Source of the DNA: Candidatus Pacearchaeota archaeon
GTDB lineage: Archaea; Nanobdellota; Nanobdellia; Pacearchaeales; GW2011-AR1
Assembly: GCA_023142835.1 (NCBI GenBank)
Contig: JAGLIS010000023.1
Coordinates: 1-48,659, forward strand
DNA: 48,659 nucleotides
Direction: 5' to 3'
Shown here piece after piece: positions 8,814 to 48,659 of this stretch. A program made the translations under genes and the position numbers. Every line of letters begins with the position of its first letter. Position 1 is the first letter of the stretch. Below the pieces are notes generated by a model that saw only the letters and a list, made by a program, of their open reading frames with translations, did not search any database and was not told the DNA's origin.

Positions 8814-9182
8814 ATGCCACACCAATGCGTTCATTGTGGGAAAATAGTTGAGGTTGGGAGTAGGGAGATTCTTGAGGGTTGTAGTAGTTGTAGTGGGAAA
8901 TTTTTTTTCTATATTCGTGAGGAACAGGTGGCTCAAATAAAGGCTTCGAAGGAGACTTTAATTCCTGAATTTGATACGGTGGATAAGAAACAGATAGAGT
9001 CTGATGTGAGGGCTATTTTGAAAATTGAGGATGAGTTGAAGCCAGTCGTTCTGGATTTGGAAAGTATTAGGGTTTTGAAGCCAGGACAATTTGAGATTGA
9101 CATTGTTTCGTTGATGAATCGGAAACCAATTATTTTTAAGTTACAGGAAGGTAAATACTTAATTGATATTGAAAGGATGTGA
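8814..9182 (+). CDS. Zn-ribbon protein
   Basis: CVHCGK...CSSCSGKFF N-terminal CxxC/CxxC ribbon, similar to conserved archaeal Zn-ribbon proteins. Confidence 0.6.
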   Translation: MPHQCVHCGKIVEVGSREILEGCSSCSGKFFFYIREEQVAQIKASKETLIPEFDTVDKKQIESDVRAILKIEDELKPVVLDLESIRVLKPGQFEIDIVSLMNRKPIIFKLQEGKYLIDIERM

Positions 9183-14545: not shown

Positions 14546-14622
14546 ATAATATGTTACTTAATGAAAAGGAATTTAAAATTTAATGATGGGGGGAGTCATA
14601 TTTTGGCGATGAAAAAATTAAA

Positions 14623-14679: not shown

Positions 14680-15254
14680 AATTCCAAGAAGTAATTGACA
14701 AAAGACATACTACGAGAGAATTTGAAGAAAAGAAAGTTTCGTTGAAGACCTTAAAAAAATTAGTCTCGAATGCAACAAAAGCACCTTCTGCAGCAAATTG
14801 GCAGCCAGGGGAATTTTATATAATTCAATCAGAAGAGATGATAAAAAAACTTTCAGAAATATTAGTGAAATTTTTAGGAAAAGAAAATAAAGAATTGAAA
14901 AAACTTCCGAAGAAATTGCAGGGAATAACCAATAAATTTTATTCAACTCTTGGAGGATGTAAAACTGTAATTTTTGTGTATACAAAAAGAAATAAAGATT
15001 TGAGAAAAAGAGATAGTAGTATTATGAGTGTTTCTGCGTCAATTGAGAATTTGTTGCTTAGTGCAGTTGATGAAAATCTTGGGACTTGCTGGATGGGTTC
15101 ATTCAAGATGGTTCAAAAAGAGATTAATGTGCTTTTGAAAATTCCAAAAAACTTTGAAATGGTTGCGGGATTATTAATTGGTTATCCAAAGAAGGGTTAT
15201 ATTCCGCTTAAAAGAAAAAAGAAAAAACTTTCGGAGGTTTTGAGAGTTATATGA
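14676..15254 (+). CDS. Nitroreductase family protein
   Basis: IDKRHTTREFEEKKVS...ATKAPSAANWQP and the C-terminal GYP motif region. Confidence 0.85.
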   Translation: MKFQEVIDKRHTTREFEEKKVSLKTLKKLVSNATKAPSAANWQPGEFYIIQSEEMIKKLSEILVKFLGKENKELKKLPKKLQGITNKFYSTLGGCKTVIFVYTKRNKDLRKRDSSIMSVSASIENLLLSAVDENLGTCWMGSFKMVQKEINVLLKIPKNFEMVAGLLIGYPKKGYIPLKRKKKKLSEVLRVI

Positions 15255-15391
15255 AATATCTAATCTTCTATACGGGAAAAATTAAAAACCAAAACAAATA
15301 TAAACTGAGTTCTATAATAGATTATAATTTAAGTCCTCGGTGTTACCTGCAAGGATATGCTGGGTTTTATATTTTTAAGAGGTGTTTTTGA
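15251..15391 (+). other. 46-codon mini-ORF starting with a second stub of the PIN-like gene (MKYLIFYTGK...)
   Basis: ATG overlaps the nitroreductase TGA. Its TGA is immediately followed by the ATG at 15392. Confidence 0.55.
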
Positions 15392-15925
15392 ATGAAACTA
15401 ATTTATATTTACGGACCTCCTGCTTCGGGAAAACTAACTGTAGCTAAAGAACTAGAGAAACTTACAAAATATAAATTGTTTCATAATCATTTGATTAATG
15501 ATGTTATTTCAGAAATTATGGATTTTGAACATCCTAAATTCTGGAAATTTACTGATAGATTGAAATTGGAGGTTTTTGGTTTAGCTTCTCGATTTAATGT
15601 AGGGGGAATGATTTTTACTCAAACATATGTTGGCGGGAGTTTTCCAAAGAAAGCAAAAAAAATAATTGAAAAGTATGATGGAAGAGTTTATTTTGTAAAA
15701 CTTGAACCGAGCAAAGAGGAATTAATGAAAAGGGTTTGTTATGTTTTTAGAAAGAAATATCAAAAATTTTCTTCAAAAAATGAATTAAAAAAATTTATGG
15801 AAAAAAATGATGCCTATAGGAAAGCTTCTGCAAAAAATCAAATGATCATCGATAATACATGTGTTCCCTCGAAGAAAGTCGCTGAGATGATTGTAAAGAA
15901 TTTTAAATTGAGGAGATTATTATGA
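15392..15925 (+). CDS. P-loop NTPase / small-molecule-kinase-like protein
   Basis: Variant Walker A GPPASGKLT. Paralogue of 17451-17990. Confidence 0.65.
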   Translation: MKLIYIYGPPASGKLTVAKELEKLTKYKLFHNHLINDVISEIMDFEHPKFWKFTDRLKLEVFGLASRFNVGGMIFTQTYVGGSFPKKAKKIIEKYDGRVYFVKLEPSKEELMKRVCYVFRKKYQKFSSKNELKKFMEKNDAYRKASAKNQMIIDNTCVPSKKVAEMIVKNFKLRRLL

Positions 15926-17450: not shown

Positions 17451-17990
17451 ATGAAATTAATATTTGTTTATGGCCCTCCAGCATCGGGAAAACTTACTGT
17501 ATCAAAAGAATTATCAAAAATTACTGGATATAAATTGTTTCACAATATGCTTACAGTTGACTTGGCGCAAACTGTTTTGGATTGGAATGATAAAAATTTC
17601 GGTGACTTAACAACAAAATACAGACTTATAACTTTTGAAGAGGCAGCAAAAGCAAATGTAGAAGGGATTATATTTACTTATGCTTATGCACCTGGAGTTG
17701 ATGATGATTTTGTAAAAAAAGTTATTAATCAAATGAAATCACATAATGGAGAGATACATTTTGTGCAGATTCACGCAGAAAAAGAAGAACTATTAAAAAG
17801 AGTTGAAAGCGATTCTAGAAAAGAACTCAAAAAATTAATTGATAAATCTGTATTAGAAAAGCAGTTAGTCAAGAGAGATCAATATGCAAAAATTCCTTTT
17901 GTTGAAACTTTTTCTGTTGATACTACCTGCGTTTCTGCAAAAGAAACTGCTGAGAAAATAAAAGAACATTTTAAATTAGTTTCTGATTAA
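17451..17990 (+). CDS. P-loop NTPase / kinase-like protein, paralogue of 15392-15925
   Basis: MKLIFVYGPPASGKLTVSKEL..YKLFHN matches MKLIYIYGPPASGKLTVAKEL..YKLFHN. Confidence 0.65.
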   Translation: MKLIFVYGPPASGKLTVSKELSKITGYKLFHNMLTVDLAQTVLDWNDKNFGDLTTKYRLITFEEAAKANVEGIIFTYAYAPGVDDDFVKKVINQMKSHNGEIHFVQIHAEKEELLKRVESDSRKELKKLIDKSVLEKQLVKRDQYAKIPFVETFSVDTTCVSAKETAEKIKEHFKLVSD

Positions 17991-18824: not shown

Positions 18825-19253
18825 ATGGTAAAAAAGAAGGTGGATGATGAAGATTCTAAGGGAGCTGTTGGGAAGGAGCATGTTTCTAAGAAGAGGACTT
18901 CTTCGGAAAAGCGGATGACTGCAAGGGAGCGTGAGGATCTTCTGATTGAAAATTTTGTTGGATTGCAACATGCGATGACAAATCTTTCTGTGAAGTTTGA
19001 ATCTCTTTCAGATAATATTACAAAGTTGCTTCAGGTTTTTGAAGAGGCGGCAAAGAGTTTTGTTTCTGGTGATAAGCTGGATGATAAGTCTATGTTGAAG
19101 AAGATAGATTCTTTATTGGAGCAAAATAAAACTATTGCGAAGGGTTTGATTTTAATGGAAGGAAGTTTAAGGAATCGTTCTGAAGTTGTTGAGCAAGAAT
19201 CTAGTTATTCTGAGACGTCGTATCCAAAACCTAGGCCTCTTCCGAGCCTATGA
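18825..19253 (+). CDS. Hypothetical coiled-coil protein (142 aa)
   Basis: Long ORF with a basic N-terminus. No family recognised. Confidence 0.55.
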   Translation: MVKKKVDDEDSKGAVGKEHVSKKRTSSEKRMTAREREDLLIENFVGLQHAMTNLSVKFESLSDNITKLLQVFEEAAKSFVSGDKLDDKSMLKKIDSLLEQNKTIAKGLILMEGSLRNRSEVVEQESSYSETSYPKPRPLPSL

Positions 19254-19432
19254 TAAATAAATTTTTGGTTGAAGTAGTTTTTAGATTATGCAATGACGGA
19301 GTCCTTGCTGATCAAAAATCGGGGGATTTTTGCTAATGATAAATAAATTTGAAATTGAATGGTTTTCTAGATTATGCAATGGCAAAGCCCTTGCTAATCA
19401 AAAATCTGAAATAAATTTAGGGATTTTTGCTT
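19250..19432 (+). repeat. Two tandem units (86 and 97 nt), each starting with ATGATAAATAAATTT and containing a conserved imperfect hairpin
   Basis: Units at 19250-19335 and 19336-19432; hairpins at 19284-19313 and 19370-19399. Each unit is also a mini-ORF (MINKF...RLCN..LA.QKS..). Confidence 0.8.
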
Positions 19433-20218
19433 ATGAGTTCTGAAGATTTATCCATGATTGCGTTGGAGCCGTTTATTAGTAAATTTGTTTTTGCAATAGT
19501 TCAGAATATTCGTTCACAGAATTTTTCTTATGAAGAGAAGCAGGTTATTAATGCAGATTTTGTGCCTAAGATTTCTGAAAAATCTATGCAGTCTTTTTTG
19601 AAGGATAAAAAGGTTAATTCTACGAAAGAGAGTGTGAATGAATTAGTGGCTTCGATAAGTAAGCCTATTGTTAAGGTTCTTGTTAAGAAGCAAATGCGAT
19701 TTTCATTACCACCACGTATTCAAGATTCTAGGGCGACGCAAGTATTTTCATCACAACCTGTTTTTCCACTTCAGGAGATTTTACCTCCGCAACCACAAAA
19801 AATTTTTTCTAATAGTGAGGTTCCTGTCTCTCCTCAAGTTTTTTCACCTAAGGTTGTGAGTCCTCTAGCTAGTGCTCCGAAGGTTCCTTTAAGTGTTGAG
19901 CCTAGTCAAGGTTATGGGAAGATTTCCCCTCTTTTGAATGATCCTTTGATTTCTTTGATTGAATGTCGTGGGGCGGGAAAACCTGTGATGATTATTAGGG
20001 TAGGTCAGAAGCAACTTACTCGAATAAATTTGAATCCTTTGGAGATTAATGAAATTTTGCAGAAGGTTTCGGATACAATTCATATTCCTTTGCTTGAAGG
20101 GGTTTTCCGAGCTGTTGTTGACGATTTTTCTATTAATGCGATTATCTCTGAGATGGTTGGGTCAAAGTTTGTTATTAGAAAGAATACTCCGTATTCGTTA
20201 CTTGAGAGACAGGTTTAA
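19433..20218 (+). CDS. Hypothetical Pro-rich protein; C-terminal part resembles the N-domain of GspE/FlaI-type ATPases
   Basis: LLNDPLISLIECRGAGKPVMII. No ATPase domain. The ORF track starts at TTG 19427. Confidence 0.45.
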   Translation: MSSEDLSMIALEPFISKFVFAIVQNIRSQNFSYEEKQVINADFVPKISEKSMQSFLKDKKVNSTKESVNELVASISKPIVKVLVKKQMRFSLPPRIQDSRATQVFSSQPVFPLQEILPPQPQKIFSNSEVPVSPQVFSPKVVSPLASAPKVPLSVEPSQGYGKISPLLNDPLISLIECRGAGKPVMIIRVGQKQLTRINLNPLEINEILQKVSDTIHIPLLEGVFRAVVDDFSINAIISEMVGSKFVIRKNTPYSLLERQV

Positions 20219-21926: not shown

Positions 21927-22483
21927 AAGATATAACTTTATTCAAAACGAAAGATTCTATTTATTTAAAGAAAGTAAAATCTAAAACGGATGTTTCTAAG
22001 GAAGAAAATTGTGATGGTTATTTGATTGAGGCTTCGGAGGATGAGGCTAGGAAGATTATTGCTTCGCTTAAGGGTAAGGGAAAAATTATTGCAGTTGTTG
22101 GAGGTGATAGTGTGTTTAATCGTAGGGCTATTGAAACTTTGAAGATAGATTATTTAGTTTCTCCAGAGAGAGGTTTGAAAAAAGATGGATTAAAGCAGAG
22201 GGATTCTGGATTGAATCATGTTGTAGCGAAGGAAGCGACCAAGAAGGGTATAGAAATTATTATTGATTTTGGTGAGGTGTCTAGGCTAGTCGGGAAGGCT
22301 AAAGCTTTGCGTTTGTCTAGGATTATTCAGAATATTGGAATTTGTAGAAAGGCGAAATGTCTGATTAAGATTGCGAGTTTTGCTAAAACAAAGAAAGATA
22401 TTATTGATGAGAGAGGTTTGAAATCTTTTGGGATTAGTCTTGGAATGTCAAGTGAGCAGAGTCGGGATGCGGTCAGGTTTTGA
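21923..22483 (+). CDS. rnp3: RNase P protein component 3 (Rpp30-like)
   Basis: DYLVSPE...GLNHVVAKEATKKGIEIIIDFGEV. Confidence 0.6.
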   Translation: MKDITLFKTKDSIYLKKVKSKTDVSKEENCDGYLIEASEDEARKIIASLKGKGKIIAVVGGDSVFNRRAIETLKIDYLVSPERGLKKDGLKQRDSGLNHVVAKEATKKGIEIIIDFGEVSRLVGKAKALRLSRIIQNIGICRKAKCLIKIASFAKTKKDIIDERGLKSFGISLGMSSEQSRDAVRF

Positions 22484-22521
22484 TTTACTAAACCTTAAAA
22501 AGATAAAATCTATGAGATTAT

Positions 22522-24045
22522 ATGGATGAAAAATTGATTGTAGAGTTTTTGTCTCCTATTGAAAGAGCTACGCTTCCTAAGTTGGGTCTGGATTTTTCTG
22601 ATTTGGAAGATGTTGCGAAGAAAACTTCTCAGGATAAAACTACTGTGCTTCGGGCAATTGGATTTTTGAAGAATAAGGGTTTGATTGAGAGTGAGAGTTC
22701 TGAAGAAGAGGTTGTTAGTTTAGGAATTTTAGGAATTTATTATTTGAAGAAAGAGTTGCCAGAGAGAGTGCTTTTGAATAAGCTTTCTGAGAAGGGAGGG
22801 ATTTTGATTAGTGAGATTCGGAATGTTTGTGGGTTGAATGAGAATGAAGCGAAGATTGCGTTTGGAACATTGAAGAAAAAGGCACTTGTAGAAATTGAGA
22901 AAGGGAAGTTGAATCTTGTTGCGAAATCTAGTGAGGTTACTAAGAAGATGCTGGAGGAATTATTTCTTGAGAAGCTTCCTCTTAATGTTGATTTGATTGA
23001 GGCACAGGATAAATTGGCCTTGCAGAATTTGAAGTCTAGGAAGGATATTATTAAGGTTGAGATTCAGAAGAAAATTAGCGTTAAGTTGACTGAATTGGGT
23101 AAGAAGATTTCATCGAGGGATTTGGATAAGAATTTAATTGAGCAGTTGACTCCTAAGATGATAAAGCAAAATACTTGGAAGGGGAAGAAGTTTCGGAGGT
23201 ATGATTTGTCCTTACCTGTTCCGAGGGTTTATGGGGGAAAAAGATATTTTGTTAATCAAGCGATTGATTATGCTAAGTCGATTTGGTTGGAAATGGGTTT
23301 TAAGGAAATGACTGGGAGTAAGATTGAGACAGGTTTTTGGATTTTCGATGCATTGTTTACTGCACAAGATCATCCAGTTAGAGAAATGCAAGATACGTTT
23401 TATTTGAAAGGTATGGAGGGGAAATTGCCTGATGACAAGAAATTAATTGAGAGTGTGAAGAAAGCACACGAAGGAGGGATTGATGGGAGTAAGGGTTGGC
23501 AATATAAATGGGATGAAGAAAATGCGAAAAAGGTTTTGATGAGAACACATACTACTTCGTTGTCGGCTAGAAAGCTTAGAGAGATTAGAGATACGAAAGA
23601 GTTTCCTGCGAAGTATTTTGCTATTGGAAAATGTTTTAGAAACGAGACTGTTGATTGGTCGCACGGGTTTGAGTTTAATCAAACTGAGGGGATTGTCGTC
23701 GATGAGAATGCGAATTTTAGACAACTACTCGGTTATTTGATTCAATTTTATAAGAAAATGGGTTATGAGAAAATTAGGATAAGACCGGCGTATTTTGCAT
23801 ATACCGAGCCTTCATTAGAAGTCGATGTTTTTCATCCTGTGCATAAGAAATGGGTTGAGCTTGGAGGTGCAGGAATGTTTAGACCAGAAGTAACTATTCC
23901 TATGTTCGGAAAACATATTCCTGTTTTGGCATGGGGGCAGGGATTTGATAGGATTATTACGGAGTTCTTTGAGATTAATGATTTACGAGAAGTTTACAAG
24001 AATGATATAAATAAATTGAGGGAGATGAAGTTTTGGAGAAAATGA
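22522..24045 (+). CDS. pheS: Phenylalanyl-tRNA synthetase alpha subunit (archaeal/eukaryal type)
   Basis: HPVREMQDTFYL, RTHTTSLSAR, FRNETVDWSHGFEFNQTEG, GAGMFRPEV. Confidence 0.95.
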   Translation: MDEKLIVEFLSPIERATLPKLGLDFSDLEDVAKKTSQDKTTVLRAIGFLKNKGLIESESSEEEVVSLGILGIYYLKKELPERVLLNKLSEKGGILISEIRNVCGLNENEAKIAFGTLKKKALVEIEKGKLNLVAKSSEVTKKMLEELFLEKLPLNVDLIEAQDKLALQNLKSRKDIIKVEIQKKISVKLTELGKKISSRDLDKNLIEQLTPKMIKQNTWKGKKFRRYDLSLPVPRVYGGKRYFVNQAIDYAKSIWLEMGFKEMTGSKIETGFWIFDALFTAQDHPVREMQDTFYLKGMEGKLPDDKKLIESVKKAHEGGIDGSKGWQYKWDEENAKKVLMRTHTTSLSARKLREIRDTKEFPAKYFAIGKCFRNETVDWSHGFEFNQTEGIVVDENANFRQLLGYLIQFYKKMGYEKIRIRPAYFAYTEPSLEVDVFHPVHKKWVELGGAGMFRPEVTIPMFGKHIPVLAWGQGFDRIITEFFEINDLREVYKNDINKLREMKFWRK

Positions 24046-24440
24046 ATAAGAAAAAGAAGGATATAATTAAGAAAGTTAGGCTTAGAAGTTTATCTAAGAA
24101 GAATTTGAGATGTGAATTTGTTTTTGGAAAAAGTTTGGAGGTTGTTGATGTGATTGATAAGATTTTAAGTAGATTGGGAGATTTAGAAGAGCTTGATTTA
24201 GCTAATGGGGAATCACGAAAGGTAAAAATTAATGAATGGGTTGATGTAGTTTGTAATATTAAAAATGATGATTATTCTGTTGATGTTTTTTTTGGGAAGA
24301 GCAAGATTGTTTTAGTGATTAACAGTCGAAGGGATAAGCAGAGGGAGATTTCAGAGGCTGTGTTTGAGTTTGTAGAGCTTGAAGATATAACTTCTAAAAA
24401 TTTAAGTAAATTAAACTGGATGAAGTTTTGGAGGAAGTGA
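24042..24440 (+). CDS. Hypothetical protein orfA; C-terminal 13 aa copied from the PheS tail
   Basis: ATG overlaps the pheS TGA. Ends NLSKLNWMKFWRK* (PheS ends DINKLREMKFWRK*). Paralogue of orfB. Confidence 0.6.
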   Translation: MNKKKKDIIKKVRLRSLSKKNLRCEFVFGKSLEVVDVIDKILSRLGDLEELDLANGESRKVKINEWVDVVCNIKNDDYSVDVFFGKSKIVLVINSRRDKQREISEAVFEFVELEDITSKNLSKLNWMKFWRK

Positions 24441-25162: not shown

Positions 25163-25216
25163 ATGACAATATTAATATTAAATAAATCAGGGGATATGAG
25201 GTTTTGGAGGAAATGA
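25163..25216 (+). other. Mini-ORF MTILILNKSGDMRFWRK: pheT head fused in frame to pheS tail
   Basis: 25163-25190 resembles the pheT 5' end and 25184-25216 the pheS 3' end. Its TGA overlaps the next ATG. Confidence 0.6.
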
Positions 25217-29676: not shown

Positions 29677-29772
29677 GCCTGATTAGCTCAGTTGATAGAG
29701 CGTCGCATTGGTAAAGACTCTTTGAGAAATCCAAAAATGCGGAGGTCGTGGGTTTGATCCCCATGTCAGGCT
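29677..29772 (+). tRNA. tRNA-Thr (anticodon GGT) with a ~23-nt intron at 37/38 (29714-29736)
   Basis: Acceptor GCCTGAT/GTCAGGC, D arm GCTC-AGTTGATA-GAGC, anticodon stem TCGCA/TGCGG, loop TTGGTA|intron|A. Intron CCAA pairs with TTGG (BHB-like). Confidence 0.75.
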
Positions 29773-36529: not shown

Positions 36530-37155
36530 AACCTCTTGTTGTTGTAAATTTCAAAACGTATAGGCAAGGGAAGGAAGCGATTAATTTAGCTAAGCAGATT
36601 GAAAGAGTTGATGGGAAAATTATCGTCGGTGTGCAGGCAAGTGATGTTTATGAGATTGTTAAGAAAACTAAATTAAAAGTTTATAGTCAGCATGTGGATT
36701 ATTTAGAAAAAGGACGAGCAACGGGATTTATTCTTCCCGAGGCTGTAAGGGGGGATAAGGCTATTGGGAGTTTTTTGAATCATTCGGAGCATAAGTTAGG
36801 GTTTGATGTTTTGAAAAAAACTGTTAAGAGATGTAATGAGGTAGGATTAAAGACTGTGGTTTTTGCTTCATCGTTGAGGGAAGCTTTGAAAATTGAAAAG
36901 TTAAAGCCTGATTATTTGGTAATAGAACCTCCTGAACTTGTTGGGGGAAAGGTTTCTGTTTCTGAATCTAAGCCGGAATTAATAGAGAAGATAAAGAAGA
37001 GTTTGAAAATGGATTTTCTCGTCGGTGCGGGGATTCATTCTTATGAAGATTTGAAGATTGCTATGAAACTTGGAGCGTCGGGTATTGCAGTTAGTTCGGC
37101 TATTTGTAATGTTAAGAATTCTGGGAAGGCGTTGAGGGAGTTGATTGGAAAGTGA
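36526..37155 (+). CDS. tpiA: Triosephosphate isomerase, archaeal type
   Basis: VVNFKTY, LNHSEH, EPPELVGG. Confidence 0.9.
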   Translation: MKPLVVVNFKTYRQGKEAINLAKQIERVDGKIIVGVQASDVYEIVKKTKLKVYSQHVDYLEKGRATGFILPEAVRGDKAIGSFLNHSEHKLGFDVLKKTVKRCNEVGLKTVVFASSLREALKIEKLKPDYLVIEPPELVGGKVSVSESKPELIEKIKKSLKMDFLVGAGIHSYEDLKIAMKLGASGIAVSSAICNVKNSGKALRELIGK

Positions 37156-37577
37156 AGGATAAATTATTGTTAAATATTTTGCATGAGGTGCAAGATAAGG
37201 AAGGTTATCTTTCTGAAAAAAGTTTGAAGAAGATTAGTGTAGAATATAATATTCCGATGTCTAAACTTTATAGCGTCGCTACATTTTATACAATGTTACG
37301 AACTAAGAAACAAGGAAAGTATGTTATAGAATTGTGCGGATCTCCGAGTTGTGTTTTAAATAAAAGTAGGGAGATAGAAAAATTTTTGGAGAGGGAGTTA
37401 AAGATTGAGATTGGTGAGACGAGTAAGGATGATTTGTTTTCGGTTTATAAGACTTCATGTATTGGGTGTTGTGATGAGGCACCTGCGATGTTGGTTAATG
37501 GGGAACCGTATACGAAGTTAACTGTTAAGAGAGTCAAAGAAATTTTAGAGGAATTAAGAAAAAATGCAAATTCTTAG
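37152..37577 (+). CDS. hydC: NuoE/HydC-like [2Fe-2S] thioredoxin-fold subunit
   Basis: ELCGSPSC...CIGCCDEAPAMLVNGE. Confidence 0.8.
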   Translation: MKDKLLLNILHEVQDKEGYLSEKSLKKISVEYNIPMSKLYSVATFYTMLRTKKQGKYVIELCGSPSCVLNKSREIEKFLERELKIEIGETSKDDLFSVYKTSCIGCCDEAPAMLVNGEPYTKLTVKRVKEILEELRKNANS

Positions 37578-38679
37578 AGAGACAAAATTGGAAGGGTTGA
37601 GGTTGGCTAGAAAAGTTGGGCGACAGAAAGTTCTTGAGATTTTGTTGAAGAAAAAATTAGGAGGTCGGGGTGGTGCAAATTTTCCGGTTGCAAAAAAATG
37701 GGAGACAGCACTTGGTGTGAAAGCAGATGAAAGGTATGTGATATGTAATGCAGATGAAGGTGAGCCGGGAACTTTTAAGGATAAATTTATTTTGAAGAAT
37801 AATTTTGAGACGATGATTGAGGGATTGTTAATTGCGGCTTATGTTTTGAGAGCTAAGAGGTGTTTTATTTATCTTCGAGGAGAGTATGATTATTTGAGGG
37901 AAGAACTTGAGGAGAAAATAAAAGAAGTTTTGGAGAAATCTAAAATGAAAGTTTCGATTGAAATTGTTAGAGGTGCTGGGGCGTATATTTGTGGGGAGGA
38001 GACTGCGATTATACAGTCGATAATGGGGAATAGGGGTAGTTCAATGTATAAACCGCCTCATCCTACTATTTCGGGTTTGTGGGGTAAGCCTACTGTTTTG
38101 AATAATGTTGAGACATTGACTTGTGTTCCTCAAGCGTTGGTCTATGAGGATTGGAATCCTGATTATAGGTTGTTTTCTATTTCGGGAGATGTTAATCATC
38201 CAGGAGTTTATGAGTGGGAATTGGGAGTAAAGATGTCTACGATTTTGGATGTTGTCAAACCGAGGGAGAAAATTAAGGCAATGTCTTTTGGTTGTTTTGG
38301 GGGGATTATGCCAGTTAAGAAAAGTTCTTCTGTTTCTCAGGAGACTATCTGTAAGGGTAATTGTCAGCATGGTGCGTTTAGTATTATCTTTATTGGGGAG
38401 AGACATAATATCGTCGATATATGTTTGAGTATCGCAAAATTTTATACTTATGAGTCTTGTGGAAAGTGTACTCCTTGTCGGGAGGGGACGATAAGATTGG
38501 TTAATCTGCTTAAGAAAATAAAAAGTAAAAAGGTAAATGAGGGTGATATAAAATTGTTGAAGGAATTTGCAGAGCATATTCAAGAGACGAGCTTGTGTGG
38601 ATTGGGACAGTCTTGTGGGAATCATATATTGACGAGTCTTAAATATTTTAAGAAAGATTATATGAGGTATATAAAATGA
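37564..38679 (+). CDS. hydB: NuoF/HydB-like flavoprotein subunit (short form)
   Basis: GGRGGANFPVAKKW, CNADEGEPGTFKD, ESCGKCTPCREG, LCGLGQS. Confidence 0.85.
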   Translation: MQILRETKLEGLRLARKVGRQKVLEILLKKKLGGRGGANFPVAKKWETALGVKADERYVICNADEGEPGTFKDKFILKNNFETMIEGLLIAAYVLRAKRCFIYLRGEYDYLREELEEKIKEVLEKSKMKVSIEIVRGAGAYICGEETAIIQSIMGNRGSSMYKPPHPTISGLWGKPTVLNNVETLTCVPQALVYEDWNPDYRLFSISGDVNHPGVYEWELGVKMSTILDVVKPREKIKAMSFGCFGGIMPVKKSSSVSQETICKGNCQHGAFSIIFIGERHNIVDICLSIAKFYTYESCGKCTPCREGTIRLVNLLKKIKSKKVNEGDIKLLKEFAEHIQETSLCGLGQSCGNHILTSLKYFKKDYMRYIK

Positions 38680-40343
38680 GGATAATTCTTGATGGGAAAA
38701 ATTTGGAAGTTGATGGGGAAAAAACAATTTTAGAAATTTGTCAAGGACAAAATATTAAAATTCCTACGTTGTGTTATCATAAGAATTTATTTCCTGAGGC
38801 AAGATGTAGATTATGTTTGGTTGACCTTGATGGGAAATTGGTGACTGCTTGTTCTACTAAGGCAAAAGAGAATTCTAAAATTGTAACCTCTTCTGAAAAG
38901 GTTTTAATGGCTCGACGGAGAAATATGGAATTGATGAATCCTGGTGTTGATATTGGTAAGTTGTCGGATGATTTTGAGGCGAGGGAAATTTATGAGCAGG
39001 TTGGTTTGGATAATGAGAGATTTAAGCCGATAAAAAATTATCTTCCGGAACTTGGAGCTGCACTTGTCAGGGATAATAATAAATGTGTTAATTGTGGACG
39101 GTGTGTTCAGGTTTGTGAAAAGATACAGGCTATTTCGGCGGTTGATTTTGCGAGTCGGGCTCATAATGAACATGTGACTCCATATTTTGAAAAGCATTTG
39201 TCGGATATTGCGTGTATAAAATGTGGGCAGTGTTTGATTAATTGTCCTGTTGGGGCTATTTCTGAGAGGTCGCATTTGAAGGAAGTTGTTGAGGCGTTGA
39301 ATAATCCTAAGAAGCATGTTGTTGCACAGACGGCACCGTCGATAAGAGCGGCGTTGGGGGAGCTTTTTGGTATGGAGGCTGGGACATTGGTAACGGGGAA
39401 GATGGTTACGGCTTTGAGGGGGTGCGGTTTTGATAAAGTTTTTGATGTTGATTTGGGTGCGGATATGACTATAATGGAAGAGTCTGCAGAGTTGTTGAAG
39501 AGGATTGAGAAGGGAGGACCTTTTCCCATGATTACGACTTGTTGCCCGAGTTGGATTTTGATGATGGAACATTTTTATCCCGAGTTGATTCCTAATATGT
39601 CGACGTGCAAGAGTCCTCATGAGATGTTGGGGATGCTTATTAAAACGTATTATGCCGAGAAGGCAAATATAAATCCTAAAGATATTGTCGTTGTAAGTAT
39701 TATGCCTTGTGTCGCGAAGAAGTTTGAGTCTACTCGTCCCGAATTGAATACTGAGGTAGATTATGTTCTTACGACGAGAGAGTTGGGGAGGTTGATTAAG
39801 CAAAGGAAAATTGATTTTGTTAAACTTGAAGATGAGGATTTTGACCCGACTCTTGGGATTGCGAGTGGGGCTGGGGATATTTTTGGAAATGCTGGAGGGG
39901 TGATGGAGGCGGCTTTGAGGACTAGTTATGAGATTGCTACTGGGAAGAAACTTAAGAAAGTTGAGTTCGATAATCTTCGGAATTTTAAAGGGATAAAAAC
40001 TGGTTCGATTAAATTGAATAATAATGTAATAAAATATGCTTGTGCAAGTGGTGGGGCGAACATTAGAGAGTTGTTGAAGAATAAGGATAAGTATCAATTT
40101 TTAGAGATGATGGCTTGTCCTGGAGGATGTATTGGAGGGGGGGGACAGCCAATTTATTTTGATGATAAGGTTTTGGAATTGAGAAGTAAGGCGTTGTATG
40201 AGCAGGATTCAAAAAGGGAATTTAGGAGGTCTCACGAGAATCCGATTGTTAAGGAAATTTATAAGAAGTATTTGGGGAAACCGTTGAGTAAGAAAGCGGA
40301 GAAGTTGTTGCATACGAGGTATCGGGAGAGGGATGGGTTTTGA
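38676..40343 (+). CDS. hydA: [FeFe]-hydrogenase catalytic subunit
   Basis: H-cluster motifs TTCCPSW, MPCVAKKFE, MACPGGCIGGGGQP. N-terminal [2Fe-2S] plus two CxxCxxCxxxCP ferredoxin motifs. Confidence 0.9.
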   Translation: MRIILDGKNLEVDGEKTILEICQGQNIKIPTLCYHKNLFPEARCRLCLVDLDGKLVTACSTKAKENSKIVTSSEKVLMARRRNMELMNPGVDIGKLSDDFEAREIYEQVGLDNERFKPIKNYLPELGAALVRDNNKCVNCGRCVQVCEKIQAISAVDFASRAHNEHVTPYFEKHLSDIACIKCGQCLINCPVGAISERSHLKEVVEALNNPKKHVVAQTAPSIRAALGELFGMEAGTLVTGKMVTALRGCGFDKVFDVDLGADMTIMEESAELLKRIEKGGPFPMITTCCPSWILMMEHFYPELIPNMSTCKSPHEMLGMLIKTYYAEKANINPKDIVVVSIMPCVAKKFESTRPELNTEVDYVLTTRELGRLIKQRKIDFVKLEDEDFDPTLGIASGAGDIFGNAGGVMEAALRTSYEIATGKKLKKVEFDNLRNFKGIKTGSIKLNNNVIKYACASGGANIRELLKNKDKYQFLEMMACPGGCIGGGGQPIYFDDKVLELRSKALYEQDSKREFRRSHENPIVKEIYKKYLGKPLSKKAEKLLHTRYRERDGF

Positions 40344-46861: not shown

Positions 46862-48659
46862 ATGGCAAAGAAAAAAGAAGAATCAAACGGAACAATCAAA
46901 CTAAGAGTTGTAGAAGCATTGCAAGACGACGCCTACAAAGGGATAGTCAGAATTGACGCAGATTTAATGAAAGAACTCCAACTTGAAAGAGGAGATATTA
47001 TTTTTATAAAAGGGGGCAGAGAAACTTACTCCATAGTGGATAGAGCATATCCTGCAGATATGGGTGAGGAAATTATTCGAATGGATGGTATAGTTAGGAA
47101 GAACTCTAAAACTGGAATTGGAGAACAAGTAGAAATTAAAAAGGCAAGAATAAAAGAAGCAAAGAAAATAACAATTGCACCTGCCCAACAAGGTATTCGG
47201 GTTCAAGGAGACCCTGAAAATTTTAAAAAAGGACTTTTAGGAAAACCAGTTATAAAAGGAGATATAGTTGTTATGGGTGGAACTCAGCGTCGACAAGATT
47301 TGATGTCTGATGGATTTGGAGATTTATTTGGAGGAGATATGGGAGAGATTTTTAGTCAAATGGGATTTGGAGGTATGTCTGGGGGATTAACTCAAGTTAG
47401 GTTCGCGGTTGTTTCTACAAACCCAAATCAACCTTGCATCATAACAGAAAACACGGAAATAATTCTAAGTCCAAAAGCAGTAGACATCTCGGAAGAATCC
47501 ATTCCCCAAATAACTTATGAAGATATCGGAGGGCTAAGGGAAGAAGTTAAGAAAGTTAGAGAGATGGTTGAGCTTCCATTAAAGCGACCAGAGATTTTTT
47601 CGAGATTAGGAATTGAACCTCCTAAAGGAGTCTTACTTTACGGACCTCCTGGAACTGGTAAAACTCTTTTAGCAAAAGCTATAGCAAACGAATCTGAAGC
47701 ACATTTCATATTATTAAATGGTCCAGAAATTATGTCCAAATTTTATGGGGAATCCGAAAAGAAAATCCGTGAGATTTTTGAAGATGCGGAAAAGAACGCT
47801 CCCTCAATTATCTTCATTGATGAAATAGATTCACTTGCACCTAAGCGGGAAGAAACTGGTGGAGAGGTTGAGCGAAGAGTAGTTTCACAATTATTAACTA
47901 TGATGGATGGGCTGAAAACTCGTGGAAGGGTTGTAGTTATAGGGGCAACTAATCGTCCGAATTCCCTCGACCCGGCATTAAGACGTCCAGGACGTTTTGA
48001 TAGAGAAGTAGAAATATCTGTCCCTGATAAAACTGGAAGACTTTCTATTTTAAAAATTCATACTCGAGGAATGCCTTTGACAAATAAAGTTAATTTAGAT
48101 GAAATAGCATCGAAGACTCACGGGTTTGTTGGAGCCGATATTAATTCTTTGGCAAAGGAAGCTGCAATGATTGTTCTTCGAAGGAATCTCCCGAAATTTA
48201 ATCTTGAAGAGGACAAAGAAATCCCTCAAGAAGTTTTAGAGGAATTAAAAGTTTCACAGAAAGATTTTGATGAAGCGTTAAAAGTTGTTAGACCTTCAGC
48301 GATGCGAGAAGTTCTTGTAGAAACTCCAAATACTAAATGGGAAGACATCGGTGGAATTGATGGTGTCAAGAGAGATTTGAAGGAAGCAGTAGAATGGCCA
48401 TTAAAATTTCCAGCATCATTTACGCGAATGGGGATTAATCCTCCAAAAGGAGTTTTGCTTTATGGACCTCCGGGAACAGGTAAAACTCTTTTAGCAAAAG
48501 CCGTCGCCAATGAATCAGAAGCAAATTTTATTCAAGTAAAAGGTCCAAGTCTATTGAGTATGTGGGTAGGGAAGTCTGAGGAAGGAATTAGGAAAATATT
48601 TGAGAGAGCAAGGCAGGTTTCACCTTGTATAGTTTTCTTCGATGAAATAGATTCTCTTG
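46862..48659 (+). CDS. cdc48: Cdc48/VCP-type AAA+ ATPase, 3' end outside window
   Basis: Not in the ORF track because no stop falls in the window. N-domain ([20 protein letters not shown]), D1 GPPGTGKT...IIFIDEID, and the start of D2 GPPGTGKT...VFFDEIDS. Confidence 0.95.

Follow-up and report, generated by a model that had tools for sequence, protein, structure and literature searches.

The DNA analysed here, called the window in what follows, is the 48,659-nt contig JAGLIS010000023.1 of a Candidatus Pacearchaeota archaeon (assembly GCA_023142835.1). It is chromosomal DNA of a low-GC DPANN archaeon and encodes RNase P p30, a DUF357 protein, an archaeal UMP kinase and both subunits of phenylalanyl-tRNA synthetase (PheRS), the alpha subunit being 86–88% identical to those of Nanoarchaeota and Pacearchaeota metagenome-assembled genomes (MAGs). 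The subject of this study is a short element that is present twice in tandem between two genes of this window, at 19250–19335 and 19336–19432. A preliminary description, made from the sequence, had presented these two units as paralogous mini-open reading frames (mini-ORFs) with a hairpin kept by compensatory changes. The locus contains the following features, the element copies being called u1 and u2 and their hairpins HP1 and HP2.

18825–19253, plus strand: upstream host ORF of 142 aa, no known family; its TGA stop (19251–19253) overlaps the original ATG
19250–19252, plus strand: ATG at which the downstream gene originally started and mini-ORF 1 now starts, as judged from the comparison of filled and empty sites
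19250–19336, plus strand: mini-ORF 1, 28 aa, MINKFLVEVVFRLCNDGVLADQKSGDFC; the TAA at its end and the next ATG overlap (TAATG)
19253–19338, plus strand: element copy u1, 86 nt with its own ATG (19336–19338) at the end; covariance model score 81.9 bits
19284–19313, plus strand: HP1 of u1, GATTA(T)GCAA(T)GAC-GGA-GTC(C)TTGCTGATC, from the minimum-free-energy RNA fold and pair counts
19314–19331, plus strand: HP2 of u1, AAAAATC-GGGG-GATTTTT, 7 pairs, followed by GCTA and ATG
19336–19443, plus strand: mini-ORF 2, 35 aa, with its stop 8 nt beyond the new ATG of the host gene
19339–19435, plus strand: element copy u2, 97 nt, ending in the ATG (19433–19435) that is the present start of the host gene; 93.6 bits
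19370–19399, plus strand: HP1 of u2, GATTA(T)GCAA(T)GGC-AAA-GCC(C)TTGCTAATC
19400–19428, plus strand: HP2 of u2, arms AAAAATC (19400–19406) and GATTTTT (19422–19428), with an enlarged loop
19433–20218, plus strand: host gene, 261 aa, now beginning at the ATG supplied by u2

The two units are 80% identical, and the second has an 11-nt insert (~19409–19419) within the loop of HP2. The tandem repeat was recovered independently as 71 nt of 80% identity at a spacing of 86, a similarity far above chance (nhmmer E = 1e-23 to 1e-25). The two-unit arrangement is present in three independent assemblies (NCBI DAOWEC010000016.1 of GCA_030638705.1, Logan SRR13892588 and ENA ERZ23498442) and is therefore no assembly artefact. 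All positions and sequences of the preliminary description proved correct: ATGATAAATAAATTT opens both units (19250 and 19336), the TGA of the upstream ORF is overlapped by the first ATG and the TAA of mini-ORF 1 by the second, and the two mini-ORFs translate as it had written. The resulting ATGA (19250–19253) and TAATG (19334–19338) are stop-start overlaps as found in translationally coupled gene pairs.

Related genomes, whose loci carry L numbers in this text, have the same site without the units. The filled site of the window reads CCGAGCCTATGA, the two units and then GTTCTGAAGAT, while the closest relatives read CCGAGCACATGAGTTCTGAAGAT (L001) and CCAAGCATATGACTTCGGAAGAT (L107). In both of these the orthologous ORFs of the 142-aa and 261-aa types overlap directly as ATGA (the 142-aa ORF is 71% identical to L001:394–855), and the flanking genes overlap likewise in more distant relatives. 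The insertion point of u1 is directly 3' of the original ATG at 19250–19252.

We searched related DPANN DNA for the element, ~1.4 Mb in all plus a scan of one metagenome. With a profile and a covariance model derived from the units, two copies were found at the gene pheS, in L004 and L107, the latter being the one new copy from 12 contig look-ups that also gave several empty sites. At this second site the element lies between the ATG of the conserved leaderless pheS promoter and a new ATG at which pheS starts, while the promoter leads directly to the ATG in the window, in L001–L003 and in more than 15 other MAGs.

22497–22524, plus strand: unoccupied target site in the window, the spacer of the leaderless pheS promoter with its ATG (22522–22524), filled in L004 and L107

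The third site is the start of the S12 gene in L100, where the copy has the S12 promoter and its ATG on one side and the S12 ATG on the other; it was the only real one among the five matches of the metagenome pattern scan. L103, the closest S12 relative of L100, is empty at this site (TTTATAAA, 23 nt, then the S12 ATG), and several N-terminally extended S12 gene calls also read directly from promoter to ATG. The covariance model scored the five copies at 79–94 bits, and the next best match, in 0.98 Mb, reached 21.7 bits.

The five known copies (u1, u2, L004, L107 and L100) thus lie at three unrelated genes. Every copy is in sense orientation, with the host ATG on its left and its own ATG at its right end. 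All five lie 3' of xATG (CTATG, TATATG and ACGATG), the ATG alone being common to the three sites. Alignment of the N-termini with those of relatives showed that the host proteins are unchanged and start at the new ATG. We regard it as highly probable that the units are insertions at start codons, an aspect that the preliminary description had overlooked; its observation was sound, and its interpretation was borne out in part.

Copies at the same gene need not share one history. The core of u1 (defined below) is 98% identical to that of L107 and 94% to that of L100, compared with 89% to its neighbour u2. Two insertions at one and the same ATG account for this better than a recent tandem duplication at the locus, which we rejected on these grounds, and u1 and u2 are probably separate insertions. 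At pheS, L004 and L107 are not each other's closest relatives, their PheRS being 85% identical to each other while L004 and the empty L001 share 90%; the promoter spacers of L004 and L107 are similar. Their copies could stem from one gain followed by exact losses, from two gains or from transfer by recombination. As a side observation, the pheS promoter, (c)TTTACTAAACCTTAAAAA(g) followed by ~24 nt and ATG (window 22480–22524, L001–L020), is near-invariant in more than 15 DPANN MAGs, and the PheRS proteins of those MAGs are merely 70–88% identical, which makes the conservation of the promoter unusually strong.

The element is 86–114 nt long and consists, after the host ATG, of a variable 5' part of ~30 nt and a 57-nt core, which comprises HP1, HP2 and then TGCTAATG. 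In u1 the variable part covers 19253–19282 and the core 19283–19338. The right end reads ...GGATTTTTGCTAATG, and its ATG becomes the start of the host gene. Over the 53 core positions aligned in all copies the cores are 85–98% identical, and the 5' parts are 57–73% identical among four copies and 13–27% identical to that of L100. A candidate origin of the L100 5' part as a copy of the S12 coding start was rejected, as only an 11-mer is shared, which we judged to be chance. The spacing from ATG to core is 33 nt in four copies and 39 nt in the fifth.

The pattern of substitutions indicates what is conserved in the core. Between u1, L100 and L107 the substitutions fall in two loops and one closing pair; all of them are non-synonymous in the mini-ORF frame, and the synonymous sites are invariant. 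The 3' block GGATTTTTGYTWATG is conserved though it is read in two different frames, or in L004 lies after the stop. The constraint therefore acts on the nucleic acid and not on the peptide, contrary to one of the possibilities raised earlier. Indeed, with three mini-ORF peptides concatenated as query, no shared 5-residue word was found in a collection of 5.8 billion proteins. What is kept is the open frame: the 5' parts of all five copies contain no stop in the frame of the old ATG, compared with 7 and 11 stops in the other two frames (shuffle product p = 0.0016, an optimistic value, the copies being related). The mini-ORFs are paralogous, as proposed, in that their frame stays open, but their peptide is not conserved. 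Their stops lie −18 to +8 nt from the new ATG, and in three of the five copies (u1, L107 and L100) the stop forms TAATG. Either recognition by a mobilising enzyme or the translational dependence of the host gene would constrain the core.

RNA folding predicted both hairpins in four of the five copies. HP1 of u1 is made up of 12 pairs together with a bulged U and a U.C mismatch; that of u2 differs by one compensatory pair (A-U to G-C) and one change from U.G to U-A. The HP1 hairpins of the preliminary description, with their bulged T and T/C mismatch, are the minimum-free-energy RNA folds (z ~ −2), the two pair changes it reported between the units are real, and the hairpin is retained in homologues from other genomes. 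We counted pairs on four copies, before L107 was found, whose arms are those of u1. In this alignment 98.7% of the cells pair, the 7 pairs of HP2 are 100% paired, one pair is fully compensatory, three changes are one-sided and of the G.U type, and one break occurs (L004). The G.U-type changes fit pairing on the sense strand. The claim that compensatory changes keep the hairpin depends on a single such pair, and a shuffle control was non-significant (132/500). We consider the hairpin plausible, with thin covariation in its favour. Terminator, attenuator, protein-binding site and recombination hairpin, the roles that the preliminary description had listed, remain candidates. Most of the sequence of the arms is conserved, which suggests recognition that is sequence-specific. 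Folded as DNA, the hairpins have little stability (−1.4 to −7.4 kcal/mol). C/D-box and H/ACA RNAs, K-turns, split tRNAs, CRISPR and bulge-helix-bulge introns were considered by eye, and none fits the sequence, the folds or the Rfam results.

How a gene could tolerate such an insertion is suggested by the upstream regions of the 46 window genes that we surveyed. Most genes that are first in an operon have a TATA box (TTTATAAA, TTTAAATA or CTTAAAAA) ~24–32 nt before the ATG and no Shine-Dalgarno motif, and hence are leaderless, and genes within an operon overlap their predecessor or carry a GGAGG-like motif at −13 to −10. In a leaderless gene that has received the element, the transcript would still start at the old ATG, and at the first site the upstream stop would still overlap it as ATGA. 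With the old ATG still serving as transcript start or as ATGA partner, ribosomes should translate the mini-ORF. They would start at the old ATG, melt HP1 and HP2 while translating the mini-ORF, stop translation at the new ATG or close to it (TAATG) and initiate again there, and the G-rich loop of HP2 (GGAGG in L100 and L107, GGGGG in u1) may act as a Shine-Dalgarno site that aids reinitiation. In the window such a relay would run from the 142-aa ORF through u1 and u2 to the 261-aa ORF. An insertion of this kind would be nearly harmless, and hard to lose save by exact excision.

Such a relay would explain why the frame is open yet unconserved, where the stop lies, how the copies are oriented and why they survive before essential genes. 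Termination-reinitiation at ATGA/TGATG overlaps has been demonstrated experimentally in an archaeon, and this layout couples translation in Haloferax and E. coli (PMC6728339). The ATGA between the upstream ORF and u1 and the TAATG between u1 and u2, also present in L107 and L100, resemble these overlaps. In contrast to ordinary overlapping gene pairs, the upstream partner is an insertion-borne ORF of 28–35 codons without a conserved peptide, and the coupling is one that we infer. We lean slightly towards the existence of the relay. Overall, we think that the element is probably a rare non-autonomous mobile start-codon cassette of a Pacearchaeota-like DPANN clade, with a translational relay.

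Two other sequences with a similar layout were seen in these genomes. In L148 (3437–3533) and L149 (1594–1649) the space from the S12 stop to the S7 start holds an insert of ~94 nt whose sequence is not related to that of the element; its layout is a TAATG overlap, a 30-aa mini-ORF (MEMNISPSARAWKRKFKLSGVEKYLEVVLK), a Shine-Dalgarno motif GAGGTGGT and then the ATG of S7. An 11-nt direct repeat of the S7 start, ATGGAGATGAA, stands on either side of it, and it is missing in the relatives L103, L121, L123 and L138. In the window, two genes enclose a 46-codon ORF (15251–15391), with ATGA as the upstream overlap and TGAATG at the downstream junction, and this ORF begins with a degraded version of the MKYLIF... 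beginning of the paralogues at 14622 and 15922 (p < 0.002). This relic has the same relay layout yet is unrelated to the units; a weak relative that the preliminary description had suspected at 15318–15337, within this ORF, is likewise unrelated to them (local alignment p ~ 0.6). That two unrelated sequences have the relay layout suggests that selection lets such a layout through in these genomes.

Several points weigh against a mobile cassette with a relay. The case for mobility is made solely by presence and absence at the same sites among relatives, and neither the window nor any fetched locus contains a transposase or recombinase gene. There are no terminal inverted repeats: between the 5' end ATAAATAAATTT and the reverse complement of the 3' end TAGCAAAAATCC, 5–6 of 10–11 positions match, in AT-rich sequence. 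The target-site duplication is ambiguous, since ATG (possibly ATGR) stands on both sides of each copy; the right-hand ATG may be the element's own, because the element-borne TGCTA or TGTTA precedes it. Five copies at three sites represent at most 4–5 independent events, and L004 and L107, with their similar promoter spacers, may share one ancestral pheS insertion; with so few copies, generality and target specificity rest on small numbers. For the relay, the Shine-Dalgarno-like run is 2–4 nt farther away from the ATG than this genome typically has it, and that of u2 and of L004 is weak. HP2 and the T5 that follows it may instead be an archaeal terminator, and three copies have a TATA-like octamer ~31 nt before HP1 as a possible internal transcription start; we rejected an internal promoter, which is inconsistent across the copies. 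Finally, the strong sequence conservation of HP1 is left without explanation.

In the ~1.4 Mb of related DNA we saw no longer element and no transposase, and phage and plasmid collections had no matches to the element patterns. Matches of looser DNA patterns in a viral collection (17 to an 18-mer, 1 and 6 to gapped patterns) were attributed to chance. No Rfam family matches the element (best, snoR53 with 24.8 bits against a gathering score of 70, E = 0.3); the only matches in the window at the gathering score are two tRNAs. Copy number is low in what was searched, two adjacent copies in the 48.6-kb window and five in the ~1.4 Mb.

The element shares some properties with known small repeats. 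Like MITEs (miniature transposable elements with inverted repeats), Correia elements, enterobacterial repetitive intergenic consensus (ERIC) sequences, repeat units of pneumococcus (RUP) and repetitive extragenic palindromes and their doublets (REP/REPIN), it is short (~90–115 nt), structured and not coding in the usual sense, differs in presence between relatives, adjoins genes and can change their expression signals. In contrast to them it has no terminal inverted repeats and a very low copy number, is strictly in sense orientation, lies with nucleotide precision at the start codon and supplies a replacement ATG. REP/REPIN sequences, which occur with REP-associated tyrosine transposases (RAYTs), are known from bacteria and have a GTAG-type 5' tetranucleotide with a hairpin and tens to hundreds of copies; the element has no GTAG motif and, again, few copies. 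Start codons and ribosome-binding sites are nowhere mentioned in a 2024 review of prokaryotic MITEs (PMC10969869). Rickettsia palindromic elements are small and palindromic and keep a frame open through the element (PMC10969869), so that translation continues through them as it would here, but they insert within ORFs and become part of the host protein, whereas the element precedes the host ORF and has a separate mini-ORF with its own stop. As a tentative proposal, and one that we think unlikely rather than likely, the element may represent an undescribed selfish class that homes to start codons, inserts after the ATG with a built-in relay and is moved by an enzyme of no known transposase type or by a process at the RNA level. 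It would recognise the region of the initiation codon in leaderless or coupled genes; with the open mini-ORF, the hairpins, the Shine-Dalgarno-like loop and TAATG forming the relay, pheS, S12 and other essential genes would continue to be expressed, and only exact excision would remove the element.

Among the other explanations, the most probable one is a host cis-regulatory RNA leader (an operator, attenuator, thermosensor or riboswitch-like structure) that was recruited by recombination, with mobility incidental and the mini-ORF a by-product. The core is conserved beside a fast-diverging 5' part, structure and G.U-type changes belong to the sense strand, and two of the three host genes are translational (pheS and the S12-S7-EF2 operon). 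A precedent exists in the putative mobile promoters of Nijveen, Matus-Garcia and van Passel, stretches upstream of non-homologous genes that by definition share 80% identity or more across 50 nt or more and that include some riboswitches (PMC3575422). The core, with 85–98% identity over 53 nt before the 261-aa gene, pheS and S12 in different genomes, falls within this definition. It differs in that its copies are in different genomes and that it lies downstream of a host promoter and needs none of its own. Against a regulatory leader speak the presence and absence between relatives as close as L004 and the empty L001, the lack of the element at the same genes in most relatives, and the absence of an Rfam family match. 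Such a leader also leaves the nucleotide-exact ATG-to-ATG boundaries and the open frame unaccounted for. The pheS-linked peptides contain 2–4 scattered Phe and no run, and the same core precedes the S12 gene and an unrelated gene, unlike what a leader-peptide attenuator would show.

The third host protein bears on the same question. The 261-aa protein had no sequence match in Pfam, NCBIfam or PDB, but its C-terminal domain resembles the N-terminal domain of FlaI/GspE/CpaF ATPases (Foldseek E = 2.6e-6); the C-terminal 100 residues concerned are predicted at a predicted local distance difference test score (pLDDT) > 90, and no ATPase domain is present. A protein of this kind is not translational, which counts against the leader explanation and led us to reject the idea of a translation regulon. 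Taken together, we regard the regulatory leader as unlikely. The family of the 261-aa protein is kept beside DUF357 in many DPANN genomes, a side observation on this host gene.

Less likely again, though it concerns mobilisation only and is compatible with the relay, is a palindrome-associated transposable element (PATE), a miniature derivative of a single-strand transposon of the IS200/IS605 type, which would insert without duplication 3' of a short target (xATG), have its own cleavage site (WATG) at its end and be recognised by a Y1 transposase through an imperfect hairpin with an extrahelical T. The element resembles this group in lacking inverted repeats, in its single orientation, in its insertion always 3' of the ATG and its end always in ATG, in its imperfect hairpin with a conserved bulged T and in empty sites that appear exactly restored, features described for IS608 (PMC3201880). 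In IS608, however, similar subterminal hairpins are found at both ends and a guide pairs with the cleavage site (PMC3201880), whereas HP1 (GATTATGCAATGAC...) and HP2 (AAAAATC...GATTTTT) are unrelated to each other in sequence. Nor is there complementarity between the presumed cleavage sites xATG/WATG and the four nucleotides 5' of the foot of the hairpin (TTTA, TCTA or GAAA for HP1, GATC for HP2). The distances are 33 nt and 7 nt compared with 19 and 10 in IS608, the DNA hairpins are weak, and no TnpA or TnpB gene was found in the window or in any fetched locus. We consider this origin improbable.

We hold it to be slightly more improbable still that the units are independent small-RNA genes of ~48 nt, with a TATA-like ATAAATAA ~31 nt before HP1, a transcript of HP1 and HP2 and termination at T5. 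In u1, u2 and L004 an octamer (TAAATAAA or TAATTAAA) does lie at the distance from HP1 that genuine promoters keep from their ATG, and HP2 with T5 is terminator-like. L107 and L100 have no good TATA box at that spacing, however, and TATA-like motifs occur at chance level (17 observed, 15.6 expected). The conserved TGCTAATG would fall beyond T5, outside the transcript, a terminator right before essential genes would be costly, and neither a C/D, H/ACA or other Rfam signature nor an explanation of the open frame goes with this reading. Finally, a functional family of paralogous micro-proteins, with the nucleotide conservation due to the peptide, is very improbable: the frame is open in all five copies with a common RLCN..(V/A)LA(D/N)QK motif, and mini-ORF 2 is annotated publicly as a gene (L104, 9904–10011, 35 aa), but the synonymous positions are invariant while first and second codon positions vary, the opposite of purifying selection on protein, the C-termini vary in frame and length, the N-terminal third is 13–73% identical as DNA, and the protein collection holds no shared word.

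We also noted other features of the window and its relatives. A 41-nt junction sequence (..AAATAAATT..GATGAAGTTTTGGAGRAARTGA) is present three times, at 24005–24045, 24400–24440 and 25176–25216; it encodes the ..NKL.EMKFWRK* C-terminus of PheRS-alpha and of the next ORF and is also found in a spacer between genes. All copies have the next gene's start codon at their end, and they look like gene-junction segments copied along with tandem paralogues. At 29677–29772 Rfam identified a 96-nt tRNA (45.3 bits) missed by ARAGORN, which is probably an archaeal tRNA with an intron. A cluster of NuoE-like, NuoF-like and [FeFe]-hydrogenase large-subunit genes at 37152–40343 lies beside genes of sugar-phosphate metabolism and is also present in L119. 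Close to the end of the window, two 150-nt repeats at 47576–47725 and 48398–48547, 77% identical and 822 nt apart, lie where no complete ORF is listed and are probably parts of a large, repetitive gene that continues beyond it. Paralogous P-loop kinase genes (AAA_18/KTI12-like) share 79% DNA identity in their first 96 nt (15392–15487 and 17451–17546). GC skew is strongly positive (0.2–0.5) on the plus strand over most of the window (1–48659), matching the orientation of the genes, and a gene for the origin-associated protein OapC lies at 8814–9182. In L148 (2730–3014; also L149, 887–1171) the spacer between NusA and S12 is 286 nt long and richer in GC, compared with ~30–45 nt in relatives, and could be an RNA gene or another insertion.

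If the element is indeed a mobile start-codon cassette with a relay, it has consequences for annotation and for the biology of these archaea. Gene callers place TTG starts within the element or call the mini-ORF as a gene, and a source of spurious annotated small proteins would have been flagged. The copies would lend themselves to natural tests of termination-reinitiation and of how archaea switch from leaderless initiation to initiation led by a Shine-Dalgarno motif, and they would suggest that DPANN archaea have a site-specific insertion mechanism yet to be recognised. Mobile DNA could then persist even in very compact, mostly leaderless archaeal genomes, by landing at start codons and passing ribosomes on to the gene by a relay.

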